From NCBI GenBank assembly GCA_051251855.1, contig JBPOGI010000003.1:256001-320000 (forward strand): a stretch of 64,000 bases of DNA. The letters are read 5' to 3'. The position numbers and the translations under genes are program-made. This document shows, one piece after another, positions 2,965 to 62,673 of this stretch; position 1 is the stretch's first letter; each line of letters begins with the position of its first letter. The notes beneath the pieces were generated by a model, which did not search any database, was not told the DNA's origin, and was given only the letters and a program-made list of their open reading frames with translations. The DNA is from Roseibacillus sp. (GTDB lineage Bacteria > Verrucomicrobiota > Verrucomicrobiia > Verrucomicrobiales > Akkermansiaceae).

Positions 2965-3075
2965 GTGGCGCGTGCCTCTGGCGCGCGAGAGTAAAGACGG
3001 TCGTCCTCGACCGGCAGAGTTTCAGGCAGTCGAGACGCCTGCCTTTGACCTTCGCGGCCCGGAGGACCGCGCCAC
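2965..3075. repeat. REP doublet (REPIN-like), left flank of RAYT
   Basis: GTGG-CGCGTGCCTCTGGCGCGCG ... CGCGGCCCGGAGGACCGCGCCAC; inverted homolog of 3811-3924. Confidence 0.85.
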
Positions 3076-3123
3076 GGGTAGGAATATCTTGACGATTGAT
3101 ACTCGTTTGAACACTTTTTAAAT

Positions 3124-3786
3124 ATGAACTCCGTTCCCTTTGTTCCGTTCAATTGCTTGAAAACTAAGGTCGAGAAAAGCAAGTCACGTCTTCCTCATTG
3201 GAGTCGAGAAGGAGCCACTCACTTTGTCACTTTCCGACTCGCGGATGCTATTCCTGCAGAGGCTAAGAAGCAATGGCGGCAAAAGCGTGAGGAGTGGTTG
3301 GCGAGATGTGGGACTTCTTCCGATGAGCAGAATTGGTTTGGTAGACTCACTGCCGAGCAGCGGCGTGAATATCGCAGTAAGTTTGGGGCGACTTTCGAAA
3401 AAATGATGGATCGAGGACAGGGAGAATGCCTTTTGAGAAAAGAGGCCAACGCAGGAATTTTAGCGGAGTGTCTTCACCACTTTGATGGGGAGAAGTATTT
3501 TCTCGGAGACTATGTGATTATGCCCAATCATGTTCATGTTTTGGTGATTCCGCTGGGAGAAAATATCCTTCATCAGATAGTGGGGGCTTGGAAGGGCTTT
3601 TCGTCGCGGCAGATGAATCAGAAGGAAGGAAGAAGCGGAGCGCTCTGGCAGCGTGAGAGTTTTGACCATGCTGTTCGGACAGAGAGGCAATTACAGCGGT
3701 TCGTCGACTATATTGCGGACAATCCCCTGAAGGCGGGGCTGTCTCCAGAGAGTTGTCGTCGGTATCAGGTTGAGTGGAAGCGGTAG
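3124..3786 (+). mobile_element. REP-associated tyrosine transposase (RAYT, Y1/HUH family)
   Basis: HFVTFRL, HUH motif MPNHVHVL, WQRESFDH and catalytic Tyr in YIADNPLKAGL; flanked by REPs. Confidence 0.9.
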
Positions 3787-3810
3787 CTTGATAAAGCCCG
3801 GAAAAAATGC

Positions 3811-3924
3811 GTGGCGCGGCTCTCTGGGCCGCGAAGGTTGAGGGCAGGCGTCTCAACTGTCCGGAGGGGTTCTTCCGGTCGAGGGCGACCGTGCCCATTC
3901 TCGCACGCCGGAGGCACGCGCTAC
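3811..3924. repeat. REP doublet (REPIN-like), right flank of RAYT
   Basis: GTGGCGCGGCTCTCTGGGCCGCG ... CGCACGCCGGAGGCACGCGCTAC; its reverse complement aligns over about 110 bp with 2965-3075. Confidence 0.85.
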
Positions 3925-9366: not shown

Positions 9367-10038
9367 GTGAAAGAACTCTGGGAACAAGCCATCCTCTACT
9401 ACAACTTACCTCTAACAATTCTGTTAGGATTTGTAGTGTTGTTTTGGCTGCTGAGTCTTTTGGGCACAGTGGACCTCGATACCATTGATATTGATTTGGA
9501 GGCGGAGGTGAATGCGGACGTCGATGTCGACGTGAACGGCTCCGATGGGGCTACTGACGGTTTTTTTGGTTCGCTGCTTCGTTTTGTGAATGCGCAGGAC
9601 GTGCCCGTGATGGTGATTGTGAGTCTGCTTACGATTTTCATGTGGGGCATCGGTATCACCAGTAACTACTATCTCAATCCGGCCGAAAGTGGTCTGTTGG
9701 CTCTCGGCTTTCTTTTCGTAAATTTCATTCTCAGTATTCTGTTAGTCAAAGTCACCACCGAGCCTTTGCGTCCGTTCATGCGGGCCATCAAGAACGACCA
9801 AGAGCACCAAGAGCCTCTCGTCGGCCTCGCTGGCACGGTGAAAAGCCGTGTGCTTGACAGCGGTTTCGGTCAGGTCGAAGTGCCTCGTGATAAAGGAGCG
9901 CCTGCGCTGCTCAATGCTATTTTACCAGAAGGTCGCGAAGCTCTCGTGAGAGGCGACCGCATCCTCGTCATCGATTTTGATAAGGACCAAGACAAATTCG
10001 TGGTCCATCCCGCTGACGCACCCTCAAAAAATTCTTAA
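9367..10038 (+). CDS. YqiJ/DUF1449-like inner membrane protein with NfeD-like OB domain
   Basis: Three hydrophobic segments, an acidic linker and a C-terminal LVGLAGTV..FGQVEV OB fold; directly upstream of a flotillin gene. Confidence 0.8.
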   Translation: MKELWEQAILYYNLPLTILLGFVVLFWLLSLLGTVDLDTIDIDLEAEVNADVDVDVNGSDGATDGFFGSLLRFVNAQDVPVMVIVSLLTIFMWGIGITSNYYLNPAESGLLALGFLFVNFILSILLVKVTTEPLRPFMRAIKNDQEHQEPLVGLAGTVKSRVLDSGFGQVEVPRDKGAPALLNAILPEGREALVRGDRILVIDFDKDQDKFVVHPADAPSKNS

Positions 10039-10057
10039 CAACAACCCACCCTTAGAA

Positions 10058-12130
10058 ATGAATATTATGAATAACCTGCTGTTCACCCACCTCGCTGGTA
10101 TCTTGGACAACATGCCGTTGGCTCTCTTTGATAGTTTGCCCTTCGCGCTTGTTGCTGTGATACTTGGTCTTGGCGCCTTTGTTATTTTGGCTGCCATCTA
10201 CGTCGTTCTCACTTGCTACCGCAAAGTCGAGAAAGGAACCGCCCTCATCCGAACCGGAATGGGTGGCACTAAGGTCTACTTTAATGCCGGATACATTGTG
10301 CCCATTCTCCATCGTGCGGACATGATGGACATTTCGCTGAAGCGCATTGAAATCGACCGCACAGGACGCAATGGCCTCATCTGTAAGGACAACATGCGAG
10401 CGGATATCAAGGTTGCTTTCTTTGTGAGGGTGAACAATGCGGCGGAGGATGTCTTGCGCGTTGCTGAAAGTGTCGGCTGTGCTCGTGCGTCGAGCGAAGA
10501 TGAGATTCGGACTCTCTTTGATGCTAAGTTCTCAGAGGCTCTCAAGACCGTCGGTAAGCGCTTTGAATTCACCTCGCTTTATGAAGATCGCGATACCTTC
10601 CGTGATGAAATTTTGAAGGTGATTGGAACGGACCTCAACGGCTTCGTATTGGACGATGCTGCGATTGACTTCCTGGAGCAAACTCCGATCGAGATGCTCG
10701 ACCCAGATAACATTTTGGATGCCGAGGGCATCAAGAAGATTACCCACCTCACTGCCGAGCAGGCCAAGTTGTCTAACCACATTGAGCGCGACAAGCAGCG
10801 CGTGATCAAGCAACAGGACGTGGAAGCTCGCGAAGCAATTCTTGAACTGGAGCGTCAGCTTGCGGAGACCGAAGCGAAGCAGCAGCGTGAAGTCAAAACA
10901 GTGCAAGCTCGCGAAGAAGCGGAAACTGCCAAAGTGAGCGAAGAGCAGCGTCAACGCAGTGAGCAAGCCCGCATCGCAGCTGAGGAAGAAATTGAAATCG
11001 CGGATGAGAACAAGCAGCGTCAGGTGATTGTCGCTCTCCGTAATAAAGAGCGCACCGATGGCGTTGAGCTGGAGCGTGTTGAGCGTGAGCGCATGTTGGA
11101 AGAAATTGAACGCAAGCGCGTGACCGAGCTGAAGTCAATCGAAGCTGAGAAGTTGATTGAGGTTCAGAAGAAAGAGATTCAGGAAGTGATTCGCGAACGG
11201 GTCGCTGTTGAGAAGGGCGTGGTTGAAGAGCAGCAGCGCATCAAGGATACCGAAGAGTTTGCTACCGCGGATCGTCAGAAGCAAGTCACGGTCACTCTTG
11301 CTGAGGCTCAGGCCCAGGAGAAGATGATTGGGCGTATCAAGGAAGCGGAAGCGCAGAAAGAATCAGCCCAGTTAGCTGCCGACGAACATGCTTACGAGGT
11401 CATTAAGGAGGCGGAGGCAGGTCGCCAAGCCGCCGAGATGAACGCCGAACAACGCATCATCAGTGCAGAGGCCGAACAGACCGCTGCCGAGAAAGAGTCG
11501 AGCGCCAAGAAGATGATGGCGGAAGCGATTGCTAAGGAGGCGGCTGCCACTGGATTAGGCGAAGCGGAAGTTCTGAAGGCCATGGGTATGGCTGATGCCG
11601 AAGCGATTGAGCTGAAGGCTGCGGCCATGAAGCTCTTCGAAGAAGCCGGTCAGGAGCACGAAGAATTCAAGCTCGAGTTGGACAAAGAGAAGGCCGTCGA
11701 GTTGGCCGAAATTGATGTTCAGCGTCAGATTGCTGCCGAGCAGGCCAAGGTTGTGGGCGAGGCTCTCAAGAGCGCCAATATCGATATCGTGGGTGGCGAG
11801 ACTCAGTTCTTCGACCGCATCACCAATGCGATTACGAATGGTAAGGTGGTCGACCGCATGGTGGATAACAGCCGCGTAATCGACGACGTGAAGGAGACCT
11901 TCTTCAACGGCGACCCCGAGTACTTCAAGAGCCAGCTGTCGGGATGGATTCAGGACTTCGGTATTGAAACCGAAGACCTCAAGAATCTCTCGGTGTCGGC
12001 TCTGCTAGGAAAGCTGGTGAAAGATGCCAGCGGCGACCAGCGCACCAAGATGATTGGAATGCTAGGAGCTGCTGAACGCTTTGGTTTGTCGGATGCGAAG
12101 GCAGGAGACCTCTTGAAGAAGTTAGGGTAG
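10058..12130 (+). CDS. Flotillin family SPFH protein (YqiK-like)
   Basis: N-terminal TM, SPFH domain (ALIRTG, GLICKDNMRADI, IDFLEQT), long AE-rich coiled coil. Confidence 0.92.
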   Translation: MNIMNNLLFTHLAGILDNMPLALFDSLPFALVAVILGLGAFVILAAIYVVLTCYRKVEKGTALIRTGMGGTKVYFNAGYIVPILHRADMMDISLKRIEIDRTGRNGLICKDNMRADIKVAFFVRVNNAAEDVLRVAESVGCARASSEDEIRTLFDAKFSEALKTVGKRFEFTSLYEDRDTFRDEILKVIGTDLNGFVLDDAAIDFLEQTPIEMLDPDNILDAEGIKKITHLTAEQAKLSNHIERDKQRVIKQQDVEAREAILELERQLAETEAKQQREVKTVQAREEAETAKVSEEQRQRSEQARIAAEEEIEIADENKQRQVIVALRNKERTDGVELERVERERMLEEIERKRVTELKSIEAEKLIEVQKKEIQEVIRERVAVEKGVVEEQQRIKDTEEFATADRQKQVTVTLAEAQAQEKMIGRIKEAEAQKESAQLAADEHAYEVIKEAEAGRQAAEMNAEQRIISAEAEQTAAEKESSAKKMMAEAIAKEAAATGLGEAEVLKAMGMADAEAIELKAAAMKLFEEAGQEHEEFKLELDKEKAVELAEIDVQRQIAAEQAKVVGEALKSANIDIVGGETQFFDRITNAITNGKVVDRMVDNSRVIDDVKETFFNGDPEYFKSQLSGWIQDFGIETEDLKNLSVSALLGKLVKDASGDQRTKMIGMLGAAERFGLSDAKAGDLLKKLG

Positions 12131-12141
12131 GATTCGTTTTC

Positions 12142-12172
12142 AACCACTAAGGGCACTAAGTTCACGAAGGTA
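12142..12172 (+). repeat. Left 31-bp inverted repeat of GxxExxY element (3 x 9-nt CACnAAGnn)
   Basis: AACCACTAAGGGCACTAAGTTCACGAAGGTA; 28/31 identical to the reverse complement of 12591-12621. Confidence 0.9.
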
Positions 12173-12178
12173 CTAGCT

Positions 12179-12559
12179 ATGGAAAAAGAGGTTCTATATC
12201 GAGATGAAGTATTTAAGCTCATAGGGGCTTGTATTGAAGTTCATCGAGAGAAAGGGCACGGATTCCTAGAGCCTGTTTATCATGAGTGCTTAGAGTTGGA
12301 GGCAAAGGAGCAGCAGCTTCCTTTGACTTCAAAGCCCAAACTAGAACTCTACTATAAGGGGCACTTGTTGACTCAGCGCTACGAGCCTGACTTTGTAGGA
12401 TTCAGTAAAATAATCGTGGAAATCAAAGCGGCCAAAGCTCTTGATAATTCGCATCGCGCTCAAACAATCAACTACCTTAAGGCTACCGGTTTTCGCCTAG
12501 CTTTGCTCGTCAATTTTGGGAGTAAGGGGCGCTTGGAATGGGAACGTTTCATCAATTGA
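12179..12559 (+). CDS. GxxExxY protein (PD-(D/E)xK nuclease superfamily)
   Basis: 126 aa; GFLEPVY signature, PDF...IVEIK, QTINYLKAT, LLVNFG. Confidence 0.93.
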   Translation: MEKEVLYRDEVFKLIGACIEVHREKGHGFLEPVYHECLELEAKEQQLPLTSKPKLELYYKGHLLTQRYEPDFVGFSKIIVEIKAAKALDNSHRAQTINYLKATGFRLALLVNFGSKGRLEWERFIN

Positions 12560-12590
12560 AATTTAAAAATCATAGAGCCTCGTTGGCCAC

Positions 12591-12621
12591 TACCTTCGTG
12601 AACTTTGTGTCCTTTGTGGTT
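12591..12621 (-). repeat. Right 31-bp inverted repeat of GxxExxY element
   Basis: TACCTTCGTGAACTTTGTGTCCTTTGTGGTT. Confidence 0.9.
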
Positions 12622-12629
12622 AAAAAATA

Positions 12630-15600
12630 ATGCCAGATACTGAACAGTTAGAGGGTGGGAGTTACGAAGTGATTCGTGCTCGATTGGAGAAGCATGGTGA
12701 GGACTTGCGTCGTCGTTTGGGGCTTTTGAATGACGACCGAAAGGAGATTTTCGGCGCGGTGGAGACCGCCTTGGTCGCGACCGAGCGGGTGACGACGGAG
12801 CATAATTGTGTTCCCCGTGACCTCATTGCGGTGGGAGGGAATCGTTTTCTCTTTGGCTACAACATCCAGTTCGGACTCAAGCAGACCACGGACGTTTCTG
12901 ATGTCTTTGCCGCTTACGAATATGATCCCGAGGGGCACGTCTTTCATGCGCTACCGGTGGAGGAAGTTCTGAGTGACGCGAATTTCTCGGACGACTTCAA
13001 GTATCTCTACAAGTACTACAAAGAGACGGCTTTCGCGAAGTTCATGGTGATTGGGGCTCATCTTTATATGAAGATGCGTACTGGCAAGGGGGTCGATGAC
13101 TTCAAGGCCTTCAAGTGGCTGCGTCCTGGTGACGGGCATCTCGAGTATGTCGGCAATCGCTTTGATCATGAATTTCAGTATCCACCGCAGCAGGAGTTCG
13201 AGTGGAAGCGTGCTCATCGCGATATGCAGCGGGCGGGGGAGCATCCGCATATCTCGATCAACGATCGAGTTTTCGTGGAGACCGTGGGGGGAGACCTCAC
13301 CATCAAGATCGAGGATAACACGACAAGTGGAGAAGGAATCTACCAAGAACCGGTCAATGACCCCGATCAGTCGCTGGACGATGCCGAGGTGTTTTACGCC
13401 GAAGTGGGACCTTTGGTGCTCTTGAAAATTTTGCCTTATCGCGAGGAATTGCATCGCTACTTTGTTTTTAATGAAAAGACGCAAGCGGTGAAGAGAATCG
13501 ATGCTATTGGTCATTCCTGCGTTCTTTTGCCGGACGACCAAGGGTTGATTTTTTCGAATGGATATCTCCTTCTCACCGGTGATGTGCGTGTGTTTGATAC
13601 GGAGTTATCGAATATGATGTTCGAGCGTCGGATTCCGTCTGCTAATGGCGAGGATGTTCTCTACGTTTTTTACAACCGGGTAAGCGGCGATTACGTTTTA
13701 CTTTCGTACAACTTGATTAGCCAATCAGTGGAGACTCCGGTGATTTGCAATGGCTACTCGCTCTTTCCGAATGGAGAGCTGGTTTACTTTAAGACCGAAG
13801 ATGCTGCTCAAAAGCATCACACGTTGCAGGTCTGGACGACGCCTTATTTAAGTCAAGAAGCGCTCGCGGAGCAGAACCAAGATGAGAGTTCGTTTCTCTT
13901 CAAGATCGGCAACGCGGACCTTGTGCGCGGGATGTCGGAGTGTCGTGAAATTCTGACCTTGTTAGGGAAAGACGATAACTACGGGGGGCTCTATCTCGAC
14001 CTGGTGAAGAGGACGAGAGACCTCGCGGATTCTTACTTTTGGTTGGGTAAGAAGGAGACGGCGAATCTAGCCGAGCCCGTGCGTGAGATCAATCGCGCGG
14101 CGCAATCGGCCTTGGAGGAGTTCGATAAGGTCAAGGCTCAGCGTCAAGCGGCGACGGCCAAGACAAAGGAAGTGCAGGAGGCGGTGGCGGAGCTATTGGC
14201 AAGCGTTCGGCATTCGCCGCCTGACGATATCTTTGGGTTCGTGCGTCAATTGTCCGAGTTGCGGACGCGTCGCGGGGAAGTGATTGGTTTGCGCGAAGTG
14301 CGCTATGCCAAGGCTGAGACCATTGAGGAGCTGGAAGCGCAGTTGGTGGATTCCGCAGAGAAGGTTTCGCAAAAGACGGTGGAGTTTTTGCTCAAGGATG
14401 AGGCATTGGTTCCATATCGCCGTGCGGTGGAGGAGCAGGGAGAAGCGATTCCTGAGTTGGCGAAAGTTACCGAGGCTGATGCGGTCGCGGAGGCCCTCGA
14501 CAACGCCGGTAATGAGTTGGAGATGCTCATCGATATCGTGGGCAATCTTAAGATTGAGGATGCGACCCAGACCACGGCAATTATCGACGGGATTTCGGGG
14601 ATTTATGCGGAGCTGAATGGAGTTCGAGCTGACCTCAAGAACAAGCGCAACACGTTGGCGAAGGCTGAGGGGACGGCGCAGTTCGGGGCGCAGATGAAGC
14701 TCATCTCGCAGGCGGTGGTGAACTACCTGGAGGTTTGTGATACGCCAGAGAAGTGCGACGAATCTCTCACCAAGTTGATGGTTCAGTTGGAGGAGTTGGA
14801 GGGACGGTTCTCTGAGTTCGATGACTATGTGGAGGAGTTGGCTGGGAAACGGGAAGAGGTTTATGAAGCTTTTGAAGGACGTAAGCAACAGCTGGTGGAT
14901 GGTCGCAATAAGCGCGCTGGTTCGTTGTTGCGTTCGGCGGAGCGGATTTTGGGTGGTATCGAGCGACGCTTGGAGACTTTTGATTCCTTGGATGAAATCA
15001 ACGGCTACTTCGCGGGCGACCTGATGGTCGAAAAAGTGCGTGGAGTGGTTGATGACCTCAAGGCGCTGGGTGATGGTGTGAAGGCGGATGATCTGCGCAC
15101 CCGCTTGAAGACTTTGCGCGAGGATGCGGCGCGCCAGCTGAAGGATCGTAAAGAACTCTATGTCGATGGGCAGAATGTGATTCGTTTTGGCAAACATGCC
15201 TTTGGGGTGAATACACGAGACTTAGAACTCTCGGTGGTGCCGCGTGATGGAGAGATGTGGTATCATCTCTCGGGCACGGATTTTTACGAGCGTATCGAGA
15301 ATGAAGAATTCGCGACGACCAAGTCTGTGTGGGACATTGAGGTCGCGAGCGAGAGTCCGAAACTCTATCGCGCCGAGTGGTTGGCAAGTCTCTTGTTAGA
15401 AGAAGGTGTCGAAGGAGTGGCTGAGAGTGAATTTTTGCCGCAAGTACAGAGTTTCATGCAGGCTCGCTATGCTGAGGGGTACGTGAAGGGGGTTCATGAT
15501 GAGGACACCGCGAAGATTTTGGAGGCGTTGGCGCCGATTGCTCGCGATGCCGGGTTGCTGCGCTTTAGTCCGTTGGCTCGGGGTGCGGGAGTGGTGCTGT

Positions 15601-17678
15601 GGGCAGATCGTGATCAGGAAGGGCGCCAAGAGATTGCTCGCTTGATTGCGGGGCATGGTGAGCGTCTCAAGGCGTTCGGTGATACCAGCCGGGTTCGGCA
15701 TGAGATGGAGGTGGCGCTTTCGGAGGAACTGGCCGAGCAATTACAGCGCTCGCGTTTTGCAGGGCGGGTGAGTGCGCAGGCGGTAGCGGAGTATCTTTTT
15801 GCGCAGCTGCGTGAGGGGGAAGGTTTTGTGGTTTCGACCGAAGCGGCGGAGGCGATCAAGCATCTCAAGAGCGAGCTCACTGCCAAGCGTGCGAGTGAAG
15901 CCTTCGAGAAGGCGATGGCGGAATTGAGTCGTGCTGAGGCGCGGCATTCGCTCGCGTTGGACTGGTTGCGAGGAGTTTTGGAAGGTGAAGTGGCGGCGGG
16001 TGTGCTGGTGGAAGCGGCCGCTCATCTGGCACGCGGGGGATACGAGCAGCGCGAAGTCAAGCGAGTGGAGTTGGCAGTGGAGGTTGCAGGTATGCGCGGG
16101 TCTCACAATCGCGTTGAGGATGGGGTGCTGAAGATTCACTATAACGATTTCTTGGAGCGAGTGACGGTTTATCGCGATGAAGTATTGCCGCTTTATCGTC
16201 GTTTCCAGGAGCTTAAGAAGTCGCTGGTGGCGGATAAGCGGGAGGAAATGAAGCTAGAAGAACTCAAGCCGGAGGTGATGAGTGCTTTTGTTCGTAACCG
16301 ATTGTTAGATGAGGTCTTTCTTCCTGTGATTGGTGACAACTTGGCGAAGCAGATTGGCACCGCGGGGGCGGATTCGCGGACGGACCGGATGGGCTTGCTC
16401 TTGTTGATTTCGCCTCCGGGTTACGGAAAGACGACTTTGATGGAGTATGTCGCCAACCGTTTGGGGCTGACCTTCGTGAAGGTGAATGGTCCCGCTCTTG
16501 GTCACCATGTGGTCTCTCTGGACCCTAAGTTAGCGAGCGACATGGCTGCTGGTGAAGAACTGGAGAAGTTAAACCTTGCGCTAGAAATGGGCGACAATGT
16601 GATGCTGTATCTGGATGATATTCAGCATACGAATCCGGAGTTTTTGCAGAAATTTATTAGCCTCTGTGATGCTCAGCGGAAGATTGAAGGAGTTTACCAA
16701 GGCAAAGCGCGCACTTACGATCTGAAGGGTAAGAAAGTCGCGGTGGTGATGGCGGGTAACCCCTACACCGAGAGCGGCGGTAAGTTCCAGATTCCGGACA
16801 TGCTCGCGAACCGGGCCGATACTTACAACTTGGGTGATATTTTGGGGAGTCACGAGGCGGCCTTTAAGGACAGTTACATTGAGAACTGTCTCACTTCTAA
16901 CAGCACGCTTTCTAAGTTGGCCGCGAGTGGCCTTAAGGACGTTCGCGCGGTGATGAAGATGGCGGCGGGTGCGGAATTGGAGGAGGTCGATTTTGAAGCG
17001 AATTATACTCCAGGAGAGATTGAGGAGTTTGTGCGCGGGATGAAGCTGCTTTTCCAAGTGCGCGATACTATCCTAAGGGTGAACTTGCAATACATCGCGA
17101 GTGCGGCGCAGGAAGATGCCTATCGCACCGAGCCGCCGTTTAAGTTGCAGGGGTCATACCGGAACATGAATCGCATCGCCGAGAAGGTGGTGCCATTGAT
17201 GACGGATGCAGAGTTGCAAGAGTTGGTCGTCTCCCACTACGAGAACGAGGCTCAAAACTTAACAACAGGGGCGGAGTCGAATTTGTTAAAGTTCCGCGAG
17301 ATGGAGAATTTGTTAGATGAAGAGCAGGGCGATCGGTGGCTGCAGATTCAGACTGAATTTAGAAAGCAGAAGGTTTTGGGTGGGGCGGGCGAAAACGATC
17401 CTGTCGCTCGTGTTGTGGCCCAATTGCAAGAGTTCCGTGAGGGATTGACCTCGATTCAAGAAGGAATTTCGCAAGCTGGGAGCAACTACGCTAAGCCGCA
17501 GACCTTGAACGATGCCACTATCGAGCAATTGCGGGGAATCATCGCCGGTCTTCGTGAGGTGCCGGTGAAGGTCGATATCAACGTGGTGCCGGTTCAGGAT
17601 GAAGACGGGTCCATTGAGCAGATTGAAAAGCGGTCGTCGCCTATCGATATCGAGCCCCATGTGGAGCAGGGAGATTAG
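12630..17678 (+). CDS. Giant AAA+ ATPase (DUF3686-type): beta-rich N-terminus, coiled coil, C-terminal AAA+
   Basis: 1682 aa; Walker A PPGYGKTT, Walker B MLYLDD, sensor VMAGNP, Arg finger LANRAD; yqiJK context. Confidence 0.88.
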   Translation: MPDTEQLEGGSYEVIRARLEKHGEDLRRRLGLLNDDRKEIFGAVETALVATERVTTEHNCVPRDLIAVGGNRFLFGYNIQFGLKQTTDVSDVFAAYEYDPEGHVFHALPVEEVLSDANFSDDFKYLYKYYKETAFAKFMVIGAHLYMKMRTGKGVDDFKAFKWLRPGDGHLEYVGNRFDHEFQYPPQQEFEWKRAHRDMQRAGEHPHISINDRVFVETVGGDLTIKIEDNTTSGEGIYQEPVNDPDQSLDDAEVFYAEVGPLVLLKILPYREELHRYFVFNEKTQAVKRIDAIGHSCVLLPDDQGLIFSNGYLLLTGDVRVFDTELSNMMFERRIPSANGEDVLYVFYNRVSGDYVLLSYNLISQSVETPVICNGYSLFPNGELVYFKTEDAAQKHHTLQVWTTPYLSQEALAEQNQDESSFLFKIGNADLVRGMSECREILTLLGKDDNYGGLYLDLVKRTRDLADSYFWLGKKETANLAEPVREINRAAQSALEEFDKVKAQRQAATAKTKEVQEAVAELLASVRHSPPDDIFGFVRQLSELRTRRGEVIGLREVRYAKAETIEELEAQLVDSAEKVSQKTVEFLLKDEALVPYRRAVEEQGEAIPELAKVTEADAVAEALDNAGNELEMLIDIVGNLKIEDATQTTAIIDGISGIYAELNGVRADLKNKRNTLAKAEGTAQFGAQMKLISQAVVNYLEVCDTPEKCDESLTKLMVQLEELEGRFSEFDDYVEELAGKREEVYEAFEGRKQQLVDGRNKRAGSLLRSAERILGGIERRLETFDSLDEINGYFAGDLMVEKVRGVVDDLKALGDGVKADDLRTRLKTLREDAARQLKDRKELYVDGQNVIRFGKHAFGVNTRDLELSVVPRDGEMWYHLSGTDFYERIENEEFATTKSVWDIEVASESPKLYRAEWLASLLLEEGVEGVAESEFLPQVQSFMQARYAEGYVKGVHDEDTAKILEALAPIARDAGLLRFSPLARGAGVVLWADRDQEGRQEIARLIAGHGERLKAFGDTSRVRHEMEVALSEELAEQLQRSRFAGRVSAQAVAEYLFAQLREGEGFVVSTEAAEAIKHLKSELTAKRASEAFEKAMAELSRAEARHSLALDWLRGVLEGEVAAGVLVEAAAHLARGGYEQREVKRVELAVEVAGMRGSHNRVEDGVLKIHYNDFLERVTVYRDEVLPLYRRFQELKKSLVADKREEMKLEELKPEVMSAFVRNRLLDEVFLPVIGDNLAKQIGTAGADSRTDRMGLLLLISPPGYGKTTLMEYVANRLGLTFVKVNGPALGHHVVSLDPKLASDMAAGEELEKLNLALEMGDNVMLYLDDIQHTNPEFLQKFISLCDAQRKIEGVYQGKARTYDLKGKKVAVVMAGNPYTESGGKFQIPDMLANRADTYNLGDILGSHEAAFKDSYIENCLTSNSTLSKLAASGLKDVRAVMKMAAGAELEEVDFEANYTPGEIEEFVRGMKLLFQVRDTILRVNLQYIASAAQEDAYRTEPPFKLQGSYRNMNRIAEKVVPLMTDAELQELVVSHYENEAQNLTTGAESNLLKFREMENLLDEEQGDRWLQIQTEFRKQKVLGGAGENDPVARVVAQLQEFREGLTSIQEGISQAGSNYAKPQTLNDATIEQLRGIIAGLREVPVKVDINVVPVQDEDGSIEQIEKRSSPIDIEPHVEQGD

Positions 17679-34038: not shown

Positions 34039-34227
34039 GGGAAGATGTTATTTGTGAGGAGTTATTTGGGAAAAAGTGAGAATGGGTTCACCGCGAAGAG
34101 CGCAAAGGACGCGAAGGGCCGAGGTTGAACTTCTATTTTTGGGAAAAGGTCTCGAGTTTGGTCGAGCGGGGTCAGTTATGGACTGACGTTTTTGGTTGGG
34201 CCGGACTAAAGTCCGCGCTCCGTGTTG

Positions 34228-62604: not shown

Positions 62605-62673
62605 GACCGGGTGAAGGGGACGGGGTAGGACGTTCACCGCAGAGTCGCGGTGGCCGCTGAGAAACGCAGAGAT

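Follow-up and report, generated by a model that had tools for sequence, protein, structure and literature searches.

Homing endonucleases are selfish nucleases whose conserved sites, some of them in conserved genes, cycle between full, degenerate and empty allelic states. Cyanobacterial STRR are intergenic heptamer repeats, and the Foldback elements of eukaryotes have long inverted ends built of tandem subrepeats, which resemble the element reported here in layout only. In TIRtrons and REPtrons, as far as the consulted sections of two reports describe them, one small gene, for a RAYT or TIRYT, lies within cognate inverted repeats of the TIR or REP kind and is accompanied by many gene-less intergenic copies (PMC3733652, PMC6006769). 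Similarly, certain RM genes are presented, in the available part of the source, as nuclease genes in imperfect inverted repeats that undergo allelic substitution at one locus by a mechanism left open (PMC2853133). MITEs and Rickettsia palindromic elements appear in the portion of the literature used here as short hairpin-forming intergenic repeats that also form in-frame fusions in conserved proteins (PMC2229807), and rRNA intervening sequences with the four-helix-bundle protein PF05635 are described, in the excerpts at hand, as a long stem with an ORF in its loop (10.1101/2024.02.27.582315). It is in these respects that the four systems resemble our element. Furthermore, the TAACTGA heptamer repeats of Beggiatoaceae form short tandem units near start codons, and a mobile repeat-binding protein is proposed for them in the accessible text (PMC4679880).

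The window considered here is a stretch of 64,000 nucleotides, and the unit under study fills 480 bp of it between two genes of an operon. The features concerned, in window coordinates, are as follows:

12142 to 12172, plus strand: left arm, consisting of AAC, three 9-nt CACnAAGnn units and a closing A, with a T-rich outer flank
12179 to 12559, plus strand: GxxExxY (PDDEXK_3) gene of 126 amino acids, with a predicted Cas4/RecB-like fold without an Fe-S cluster
12591 to 12621, minus strand: right arm, an inverted copy of the left arm
9977 to 12130, plus strand: upstream host gene, flotillin-like (yqiK-like), following a YqiJ_N gene and outside the element
12630 to 17678, plus strand: downstream host gene, a DUF3686/AAA ATPase, outside the element
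34092 to 34116, plus strand: unpaired arm of the AAG class, like the arms of the cassette, upstream of a minus-strand gene
62635 to 62670, plus strand: apparently unpaired arm of the GAG class, its lack of a partner judged by eye only
2965 to 3924: TIRtron-like unit with a Y1-transposase-like gene (match at 3499-3720) and imperfect inverted repeats of about 110 nt on either side

The original prediction described a pair of 31-bp inverted arms, each of three CACnAAGnn units, and this holds, with 28 of 31 positions identical; a repeat finder lengthens the pair to 46 nt at 83% identity. Single arms contain neither an internal inverted repeat nor a GTAG/CGTC tag and are tandem units rather than palindromes. 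The three-unit pattern occurs nine times in the 4.96-Mb genome of the window (G000) and never in an order-4 Markov copy of it. Within the left arm, 9 nt 5' of the GxxExxY ATG, the motif GAAGG is a possible ribosome site. The spacing that had been given was also found, the left arm beginning 11 nt past the upstream stop (12130) and the right arm ending 8 nt before the ATPase ATG (12630), but the yqiK name used for the upstream gene depends on a flotillin match below threshold (E 7e-5) together with the preceding YqiJ_N gene. The downstream ATPase is an uncharacterised protein of 1682 amino acids in a yqiJ-yqiK-like operon, and it adjoins the flotillin-like gene throughout the order.

The cassette is more AT-rich than its surroundings, as had been noticed, with a GC content of 0.44 against 0.533 and 0.537 in the neighbours and a GC3 of 0.47 against 0.63. 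The prediction of a unit with neither a transposase nor a target duplication likewise stands, as far as duplications of at least 4 nt go: PF13366 is the sole domain match on the ORF, the Y1 genes of the genome lie elsewhere, and every boundary pair tested at the outer ends of the cassette was free of direct repeats of 4-9 nt. G000 has three GxxExxY genes, each co-oriented with its neighbours, and the other two each have their own matched arm pair with a unit differing from that of the window; the GAG class is the class of these two other cassettes. As shown below, the arm, the nuclease gene and the inverted arm form one discrete cassette of 480 bp, subject to gain, loss and replacement at its site.

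The ORF matches TIGR04256 (E 4.5e-36, 123.7 bits against a cut-off of 35) and PF13366 (E 2.2e-35, 122 against a cut-off of 22), and the residues of the GxxExxY motif are G28, E31 and Y34. Its assignment to a PD-(D/E)xK family is supported by the layout of E, PD, ExK and QxxxY; the last of these is a mark of the RecB/Cas4 group. E31, D71, E/D81, K83, Q95 and Y99 are conserved in 161-166 of 166 proteins and are all intact in the window protein. The predicted structure (pLDDT 94.9) has as its top fold matches SSO0001, which we take to be a Cas4 (Z 7.9, rmsd 4.3, 100 residues aligned, Foldseek E 1.4e-4), restriction-like nucleases and Hjc resolvases; no match reaches a Z of 8, so the assignment to a Cas4/RecB-like subgroup is a weak one. 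No PDB sequence matched significantly in a profile search, where T7 endonuclease I (E 0.36) was the best relevant hit. The dN/dS ratio has a median of 0.076 and a maximum of 0.149 in the 28 unsaturated pairs among 85 close ones. The protein is thus predicted, on modelling and alignment, to be an intact Cas4/RecB-like PD-(D/E)xK nuclease under purifying selection. It does not qualify as Cas4 proper, for which four conserved cysteines and a cas1/CRISPR link would be expected: no conserved Fe-S cysteine was found among 137 aligned proteins and no cas1/CRISPR link among the neighbours, which are recurrently housekeeping genes, and the PADLOC Cas4 matches are weak (E 0.006 and 0.04). The available section of the source lists PF13366 with unknown function (PMC3424549), as the prediction had said. 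The family is large, comprising 14,909 clusters at 50% identity in a profile search with E up to 1e-10, and it includes many tandem two-domain proteins of 240-390 amino acids (P0039-P0073 and others); the second catalytic site is degenerate in three of four that were inspected, and these tandem forms hint at a dimer. A tblastn search for GxxExxY found it in none of 50,697 phage records and in 8 of 72,556 plasmid records.

The best explanation for what follows, which we would give an even chance of being right, is a selfish element acting at the DNA level, whose own nuclease would cut the paired arms while host repair would join copies into older hairpin elements.

Arms of this kind are not a peculiarity of the window. 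A set of 93 distinct loci from 61 genomes of the same family, the best 29 of a larger list for the phylum and 65 loci from GTDB was reduced, by dropping five with short flanks, to 92, 29 and 61 loci respectively. Matched arms, defined as an inverted repeat with a local score of at least 30 that joins the 300 nt on either side of the gene, occur at 72 of the 92 family loci, 23 of the 29 other loci of the phylum and 47 of the 61 GTDB loci, the last set having been retrieved with the window protein and hence being biased to close relatives. The total of 142 in 182 loci compares with 1 of 76 far flanks in the family set, whose other controls gave 1 of 460 shuffles, 49 of 1368 cross-pairs and 12 of 92 direct repeats. 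This answers the question, raised with the original prediction, of whether other GxxExxY genes bear such repeats. In addition, the locus's own right arm ranked first of 92 candidate partners in 55 cases and among the top three in 71. A typical arm has three or four units of approximately CRCNRA, spaced 8-10 nt apart. The arrangement of arm, gene and inverted arm is therefore a widespread design.

The cassettes occupy many places. The 181 loci are spread over about 134 pairs of neighbouring genes, a figure inflated by some wrong ORF calls, and some sites are kept across genera. One spot directly 5' of a single gene, presumably aspartyl-tRNA-synthetase-like, has received GxxExxY cassettes of differing clades in Verrucomicrobiota and Acidobacteriota (L044, L081, L090, L103, L106, L159-L177).

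Arms are also linked to the type and number of the proteins. The co-variation of repeat and protein that the prediction proposed to look for is evident: over a quickly built tree of 128 proteins there are 32 changes of arm class against a shuffled mean of 81.8, and none of 200 shuffles gave so low a count. Such tracking would be expected in any case, since linkage alone suffices to produce it. A GxxExxY gene is present in 38 of the 61 family genomes, and the median number of arms per genome is 15.5 with the gene and 1 without it. Across these genomes, which are kin and not independent, arm count correlates with GxxExxY count (rho 0.75, against 0.12 for a control pattern; 0.59 after subtraction of two arms per gene), and the partial correlations, after the same subtraction and with the other counts and genome size fixed, are 0.47 for GxxExxY, 0.07 for Y1 transposases and -0.12 for four-helix-bundle genes. 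Exceptions occur on both sides, with at least nine arms in 3 of the 23 genomes that do not have the gene, and none by the strict pattern in two genomes that do. Arm numbers per genome follow GxxExxY and not RAYT.

These counts bear on an alternative that we regard as unlikely but serious, namely that a Y1/HUH enzyme, an RT or a host protein moves the arms in trans as non-autonomous, MITE-like ends, with the GxxExxY and four-helix-bundle genes as passengers kept for an effect of their own. It would account for the gene-less genomes G016 and G008, which hold 22 and 10 arms, and candidates for such a mover exist in G000 (8 Y1 and 2 RT matches). However, six genomes free of GxxExxY have 4-25 Y1 matches and only 0-5 arms, genome G019 has 90 arms with a single Y1 match, and the Y1 partial correlation is close to nil, as given above. 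G008, moreover, has no Y1 match yet does have a GxxExxY remnant, and in G000 the two dominant arm classes (GAG with 21 and AAG with 10 of 39 arms) are those of its three GxxExxY genes.

The unpaired arms add a further line of evidence. Only a strict set of intergenic, T-flanked arms was used, as a relaxed pattern gave mostly false matches. Of the 42 such arms in G000, 32 are without a partner within 650 nt. On the G-rich strand, 31 of these 32 read CRCRGA, and the remaining arm is close to a skew switch; because some share a site in stacks, they do not all count as independent. Genes, for comparison, lie on the G-rich strand in only 45% of cases, and tRNA genes in a ratio of 35 to 14. The GC skew of G000 is about 0.2 by replichore, and dnaA lies about 35 kb before a plus-to-minus switch (G000:C1 ~1060000-1100000), which implies either an inverted skew or a dnaA gene distant from the origin. 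The polarity is weaker in other genomes (G035, 19 G-rich, 5 C-rich and 6 flat of 30; four genomes of the same genus, 8 to 3; G081, 9, 2 and 2 flat) and was not evident in G080. By analogy with IS200/IS605 elements, as treated in the consulted part of one report (PMC6006769), the polarity suggests a step on single-stranded DNA at the replication fork. The same sections show strand polarity to be familiar from HUH elements, and in this respect it is also compatible with a mover acting in trans (PMC6006769). The stacks in G000 consist of unpaired arms of differing classes in one orientation, with a common G-rich linker (for example C1:1781589-1781766, C7:9127, C10:171324-171421).

Cassettes also nest within older inverted-repeat elements, although this is a minority state, with a third arm close to no more than 12 of 137 cassettes. 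L012, L045 and L104 retain remnants of outer arms that belong to other classes; in genome G008 (L301) three arm pairs lie each within another, the innermost being of a 7-nt type like that found around four-helix-bundle genes; and at L275 a TIRtron is enclosed by an arm pair. Both four-helix-bundle genes of the window's genome have a similar layout:

G000:C9:134623-134943: four-helix-bundle (PF05635) gene L273, with its own periodic inverted arms
G000:C7:393847-394074: four-helix-bundle (PF05635) gene L274, with its own periodic inverted arms

These cassettes are a parallel type without an evident enzyme. Since they have the same periodic-arm layout but no evident nuclease, they hint at a shared mover in trans, as does the fact that GxxExxY, four-helix-bundle and TIRtron cassettes use common sites and nest mutually. 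In genome G035, about 40 mostly unpaired arms lie between ~290000 and 440000 of C8 (L307-L334), in mosaics with TIR and 7-nt-arm pieces, a linker of about 13 nt recurring at the joints, among many short ORFs of 120-250 amino acids. The region looks like a cassette array.

Comparison of the yqiK-ATPase junction among relatives is the most direct view of gain and loss. The junction is present in seven of eight genomes of the same genus, none of which has an intact GxxExxY gene there: three have a Y1-type gene with long inverted repeats (TIRtron-like), one has arms around a C-terminal GxxExxY remnant, as read by eye, one has a decayed arm pair, and the remaining two have short spacers (45 and 89 nt). 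In distant families the junction measures 35-165 nt and is free of the GxxExxY gene. Named relatives at this junction and the labels of sequencing runs point to a marine verrucomicrobial host for the window. The gene is thus not fixed at this place, and the idea of a transposase-free cassette set between operon genes gains from both this variable occupancy and the tie between arms and protein.

There are 18 GxxExxY copies that precede the ATPase, in the family and in one other genome of the order. AU tests on the tree of these copies reject four ATPase clades (p 8e-4, 4e-5, 1.7e-3 and 2.8e-3), the clades having been picked after both quick trees had been viewed. For example, L019 and L060 have ATPases that are 93% identical, nucleases that are 52% identical, and different arms, and the L019 nuclease clusters with copies of two other genera that have its arm type. 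At the DNA level their flanks are 88-94% (yqiK end) and 79-91% (ATPase) identical and their nuclease genes 59%. Contigs from DNA sequencing runs provide further candidate alleles, each a single low-depth contig unconfirmed by reads. In run X5, a 292-nt contig is identical to the window over 233 nt of the ATPase start and, before 12628, has an arm of another class that is found elsewhere in G000; in run X6, a contig has the window's right arm with three differences and a gap, and other sequence inside it. No joint skipping the cassette was found in the contigs of six DNA runs, where coverage holes are uninformative, and a degenerate ATPase-start pattern found no match in metagenome contigs. Taken together, the comparisons show that cassettes at the yqiK-ATPase site are repeatedly replaced and the site re-used.

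A second conserved site lies within a protein. When longer proteins were searched for, GxxExxY turned up within the G domain of LepA; the source of one such record labels it Patescibacteria. The best 80 of 345 metagenome loci yielded 54 distinct lepA alleles in which both anchors are present. The anchors are 60-75 nt apart in 21 of them, arms and gene are present in 17, and the remainder have gene-less inserts, many of which are arm pairs of the GxxExxY type or the 7-nt type. All 54 are in frame and stop-free, as are five alleles with a variant anchor and one partial locus. No target duplication was seen by eye at the filled sites. This one loop is an in-frame insertion hot spot for full cassettes and for gene-less pairs of two types (L335-L414; P0016, P0029, P0032, P0034, P0035, P0037). 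Other LepA loops have translated arm pairs, with a varying number of 21-nt units in L347-L355, and L360, L364 and L366 have in-frame GxxExxY in what we take to be RecG-, LeuS- and RecJ-like proteins.

Re-invasion of one conserved site, a trait of homing, is found both at the yqiK-ATPase junction and in lepA, where full, degenerate, empty and re-invaded states all occur. It could be proposed, accordingly, that the nuclease cuts an empty or hairpin allele and that recombination between the flanks copies the cassette in by gene conversion, the observed states being those of a homing cycle. Such a model needs no target duplication, and it fits the scatter of allele states over the LepA tree (22 changes against 26.5 when shuffled) and the retention of PD, ExK and QxxxY in 18 of 19 in-frame lepA inserts. 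However, no sign of co-converted flanks was found in the discordant pairs or in the X5 contig; no clear drop in flank identity was found in the discordant pairs with 90-nt windows, which short or old tracts would escape. Moreover, the spread over so many neighbour pairs and the tens of gene-less copies per genome require a route to new sites, and there is neither a conserved target sequence nor a recognition domain. We consider homing-type conversion improbable as the main mechanism.

An RNA-level element, with arms that pair in the operon mRNA and a loop that is removed or regulated in the manner of rRNA intervening sequences, GxxExxY perhaps serving as the ribonuclease, seems to us very improbable. 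The pairing itself, suggested in the original prediction as a way of looping out the ORF, is plausible, with a predicted probability of 0.9 and a duplex of -46 kcal/mol for the window arms. By crude ORF calls at 165 loci, both neighbours are oriented with the gene in 109 and against it in 10, and tRNA splicing endonucleases are among the weak fold matches (Z about 5). On the other hand, sense and antisense duplexes are equally stable and G.U pairs are not enriched on the sense strand. Splicing would make an open frame unnecessary, yet the frame is open in all 54 lepA alleles, including the 17 that carry the full gene, which argues against a splicing out of the unit there. In addition, 32 of the 42 intergenic arms of G000 are unpaired. 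A bias in G.U-type mismatches was tried as strand evidence and rejected, as it points to the antisense strand in the family (42-46 sense against 94-109 antisense), vanishes in the other groups (20/17 and 37/38) and partly follows local GC skew. No Rfam match was found at E up to 1. Looping out in the mRNA is thus at most secondary. That GxxExxY is a host-beneficial repair or defence nuclease with the arms as regulatory operator sites is just as remote, since its patchy presence, the turnover at one site, neighbours that are housekeeping rather than defence genes and tens of arms distant from any GxxExxY gene outweigh the strong purifying selection, the sites held across genera and the weak PADLOC matches in its favour.

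Returning to the DNA-level selfish element, its cycle could run as follows. The GxxExxY gene, which would be promoterless, may be read from the host operon, and the arms would likely pair in the mRNA, hiding the gene's own ribosome site and bringing the ATPase start to within about 20 nt of the upstream stop; this pairing is proposed to keep the cost to the operon low. Probably acting as a dimer, the protein would bind its cognate arm at the three units, roughly one per helical turn. Where the DNA is single-stranded at a fork or extruded as a cruciform, the arms could form a stem with a 418-nt loop, at the base of which the nuclease would cut. Host repair might then insert the freed stem-loop where another paired-arm or hairpin element is broken, and joining into such breaks is proposed to give both the nesting and the replacement without target duplication. 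Loss of the gene would leave arm pairs, and one-sided events would leave strand-polarised solo arms. That the nuclease binds and cuts its own repeats is inferred. The joining step leans on unnamed host enzymes, because the nuclease has 126 amino acids and neither an integrase nor a DNA-binding domain; we know of no way in which such a protein joins strands. In its fullest form, this reading describes a mobile class that needs no transposase, integrase or RT: a minimal Cas4-like nuclease would recognise periodic arms as a single-strand stem at the fork and replace hairpin elements from within, competing with four-helix-bundle cassettes and TIRtrons for slots in operons and protein loops. We offer this fuller version tentatively, as a possibility well worth holding.

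If the nuclease does move the cassette, it would represent a new transposition route and the smallest kind of mover. It might also be a stand-alone relative of the Cas4 step in CRISPR adaptation, and its classes would be natural protein-repeat pairs with differing specificities. Furthermore, a family of about 15,000 protein clusters would gain a function and many periodic intergenic repeats an origin, and the origin of in-frame lepA insertions in small-genome bacteria would become testable.

How far, then, do the known systems reach? The original prediction saw in the cassette an analogue of RAYT-REP, and the analogy holds for the layout but not for the enzyme or the form of the repeats, as the cassette encodes no HUH enzyme and its arms, taken singly, do not form palindromes. 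Where TIRtrons and REPtrons use an HUH/Y1 enzyme, the cassette has a PD-(D/E)xK protein, its arms are untagged tandem units of 8-10 nt, and its arm classes, of which there are several side by side, each go with a separate protein clade. Homing endonucleases differ in that the cassette has no intron or intein, no known homing fold and no flank co-conversion seen, and in that it has inverted arms and very many sites. Cas4/RecB nucleases and Hjc-type resolvases are alike in fold and in the layout of E, PD, ExK and QxxxY, but GxxExxY has 126 amino acids, no Fe-S cysteines and no Cas1/CRISPR link. Some RM units have a target duplication, according to the part of the source consulted; the cassette has none that was found, no methyltransferase, periodic arms and large families of gene-less arms (PMC2853133). 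MITEs, in the sections used, have no protein and mostly TA ends with target duplications, whereas the cassette has an intact nuclease that is itself in frame in LepA (PMC2229807); neither a DDE transposase nor, in tests for repeats of 4-9 nt, a target-site duplication places it among insertion sequences or MITEs. In contrast to rRNA intervening sequences, as the available excerpts present them, the cassette lies in protein operons, has no sign of excision and encodes another protein, while the PF05635 genes of G000, with periodic inverted arms of their own, have sites in common with GxxExxY cassettes (10.1101/2024.02.27.582315). The Beggiatoaceae heptamers, in the accessible text, are direct repeats without a linked nuclease, unlike the cassette arms (PMC4679880). 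In the literature covered, mostly open-access and partly in excerpt, no description was found of GxxExxY with such arms. The cassette is a real element of an apparently undescribed class with a proposed mechanism, and new here are the re-use of sites, the nesting, the in-frame units in lepA, the polarity of unpaired arms and the assignment of the nuclease.
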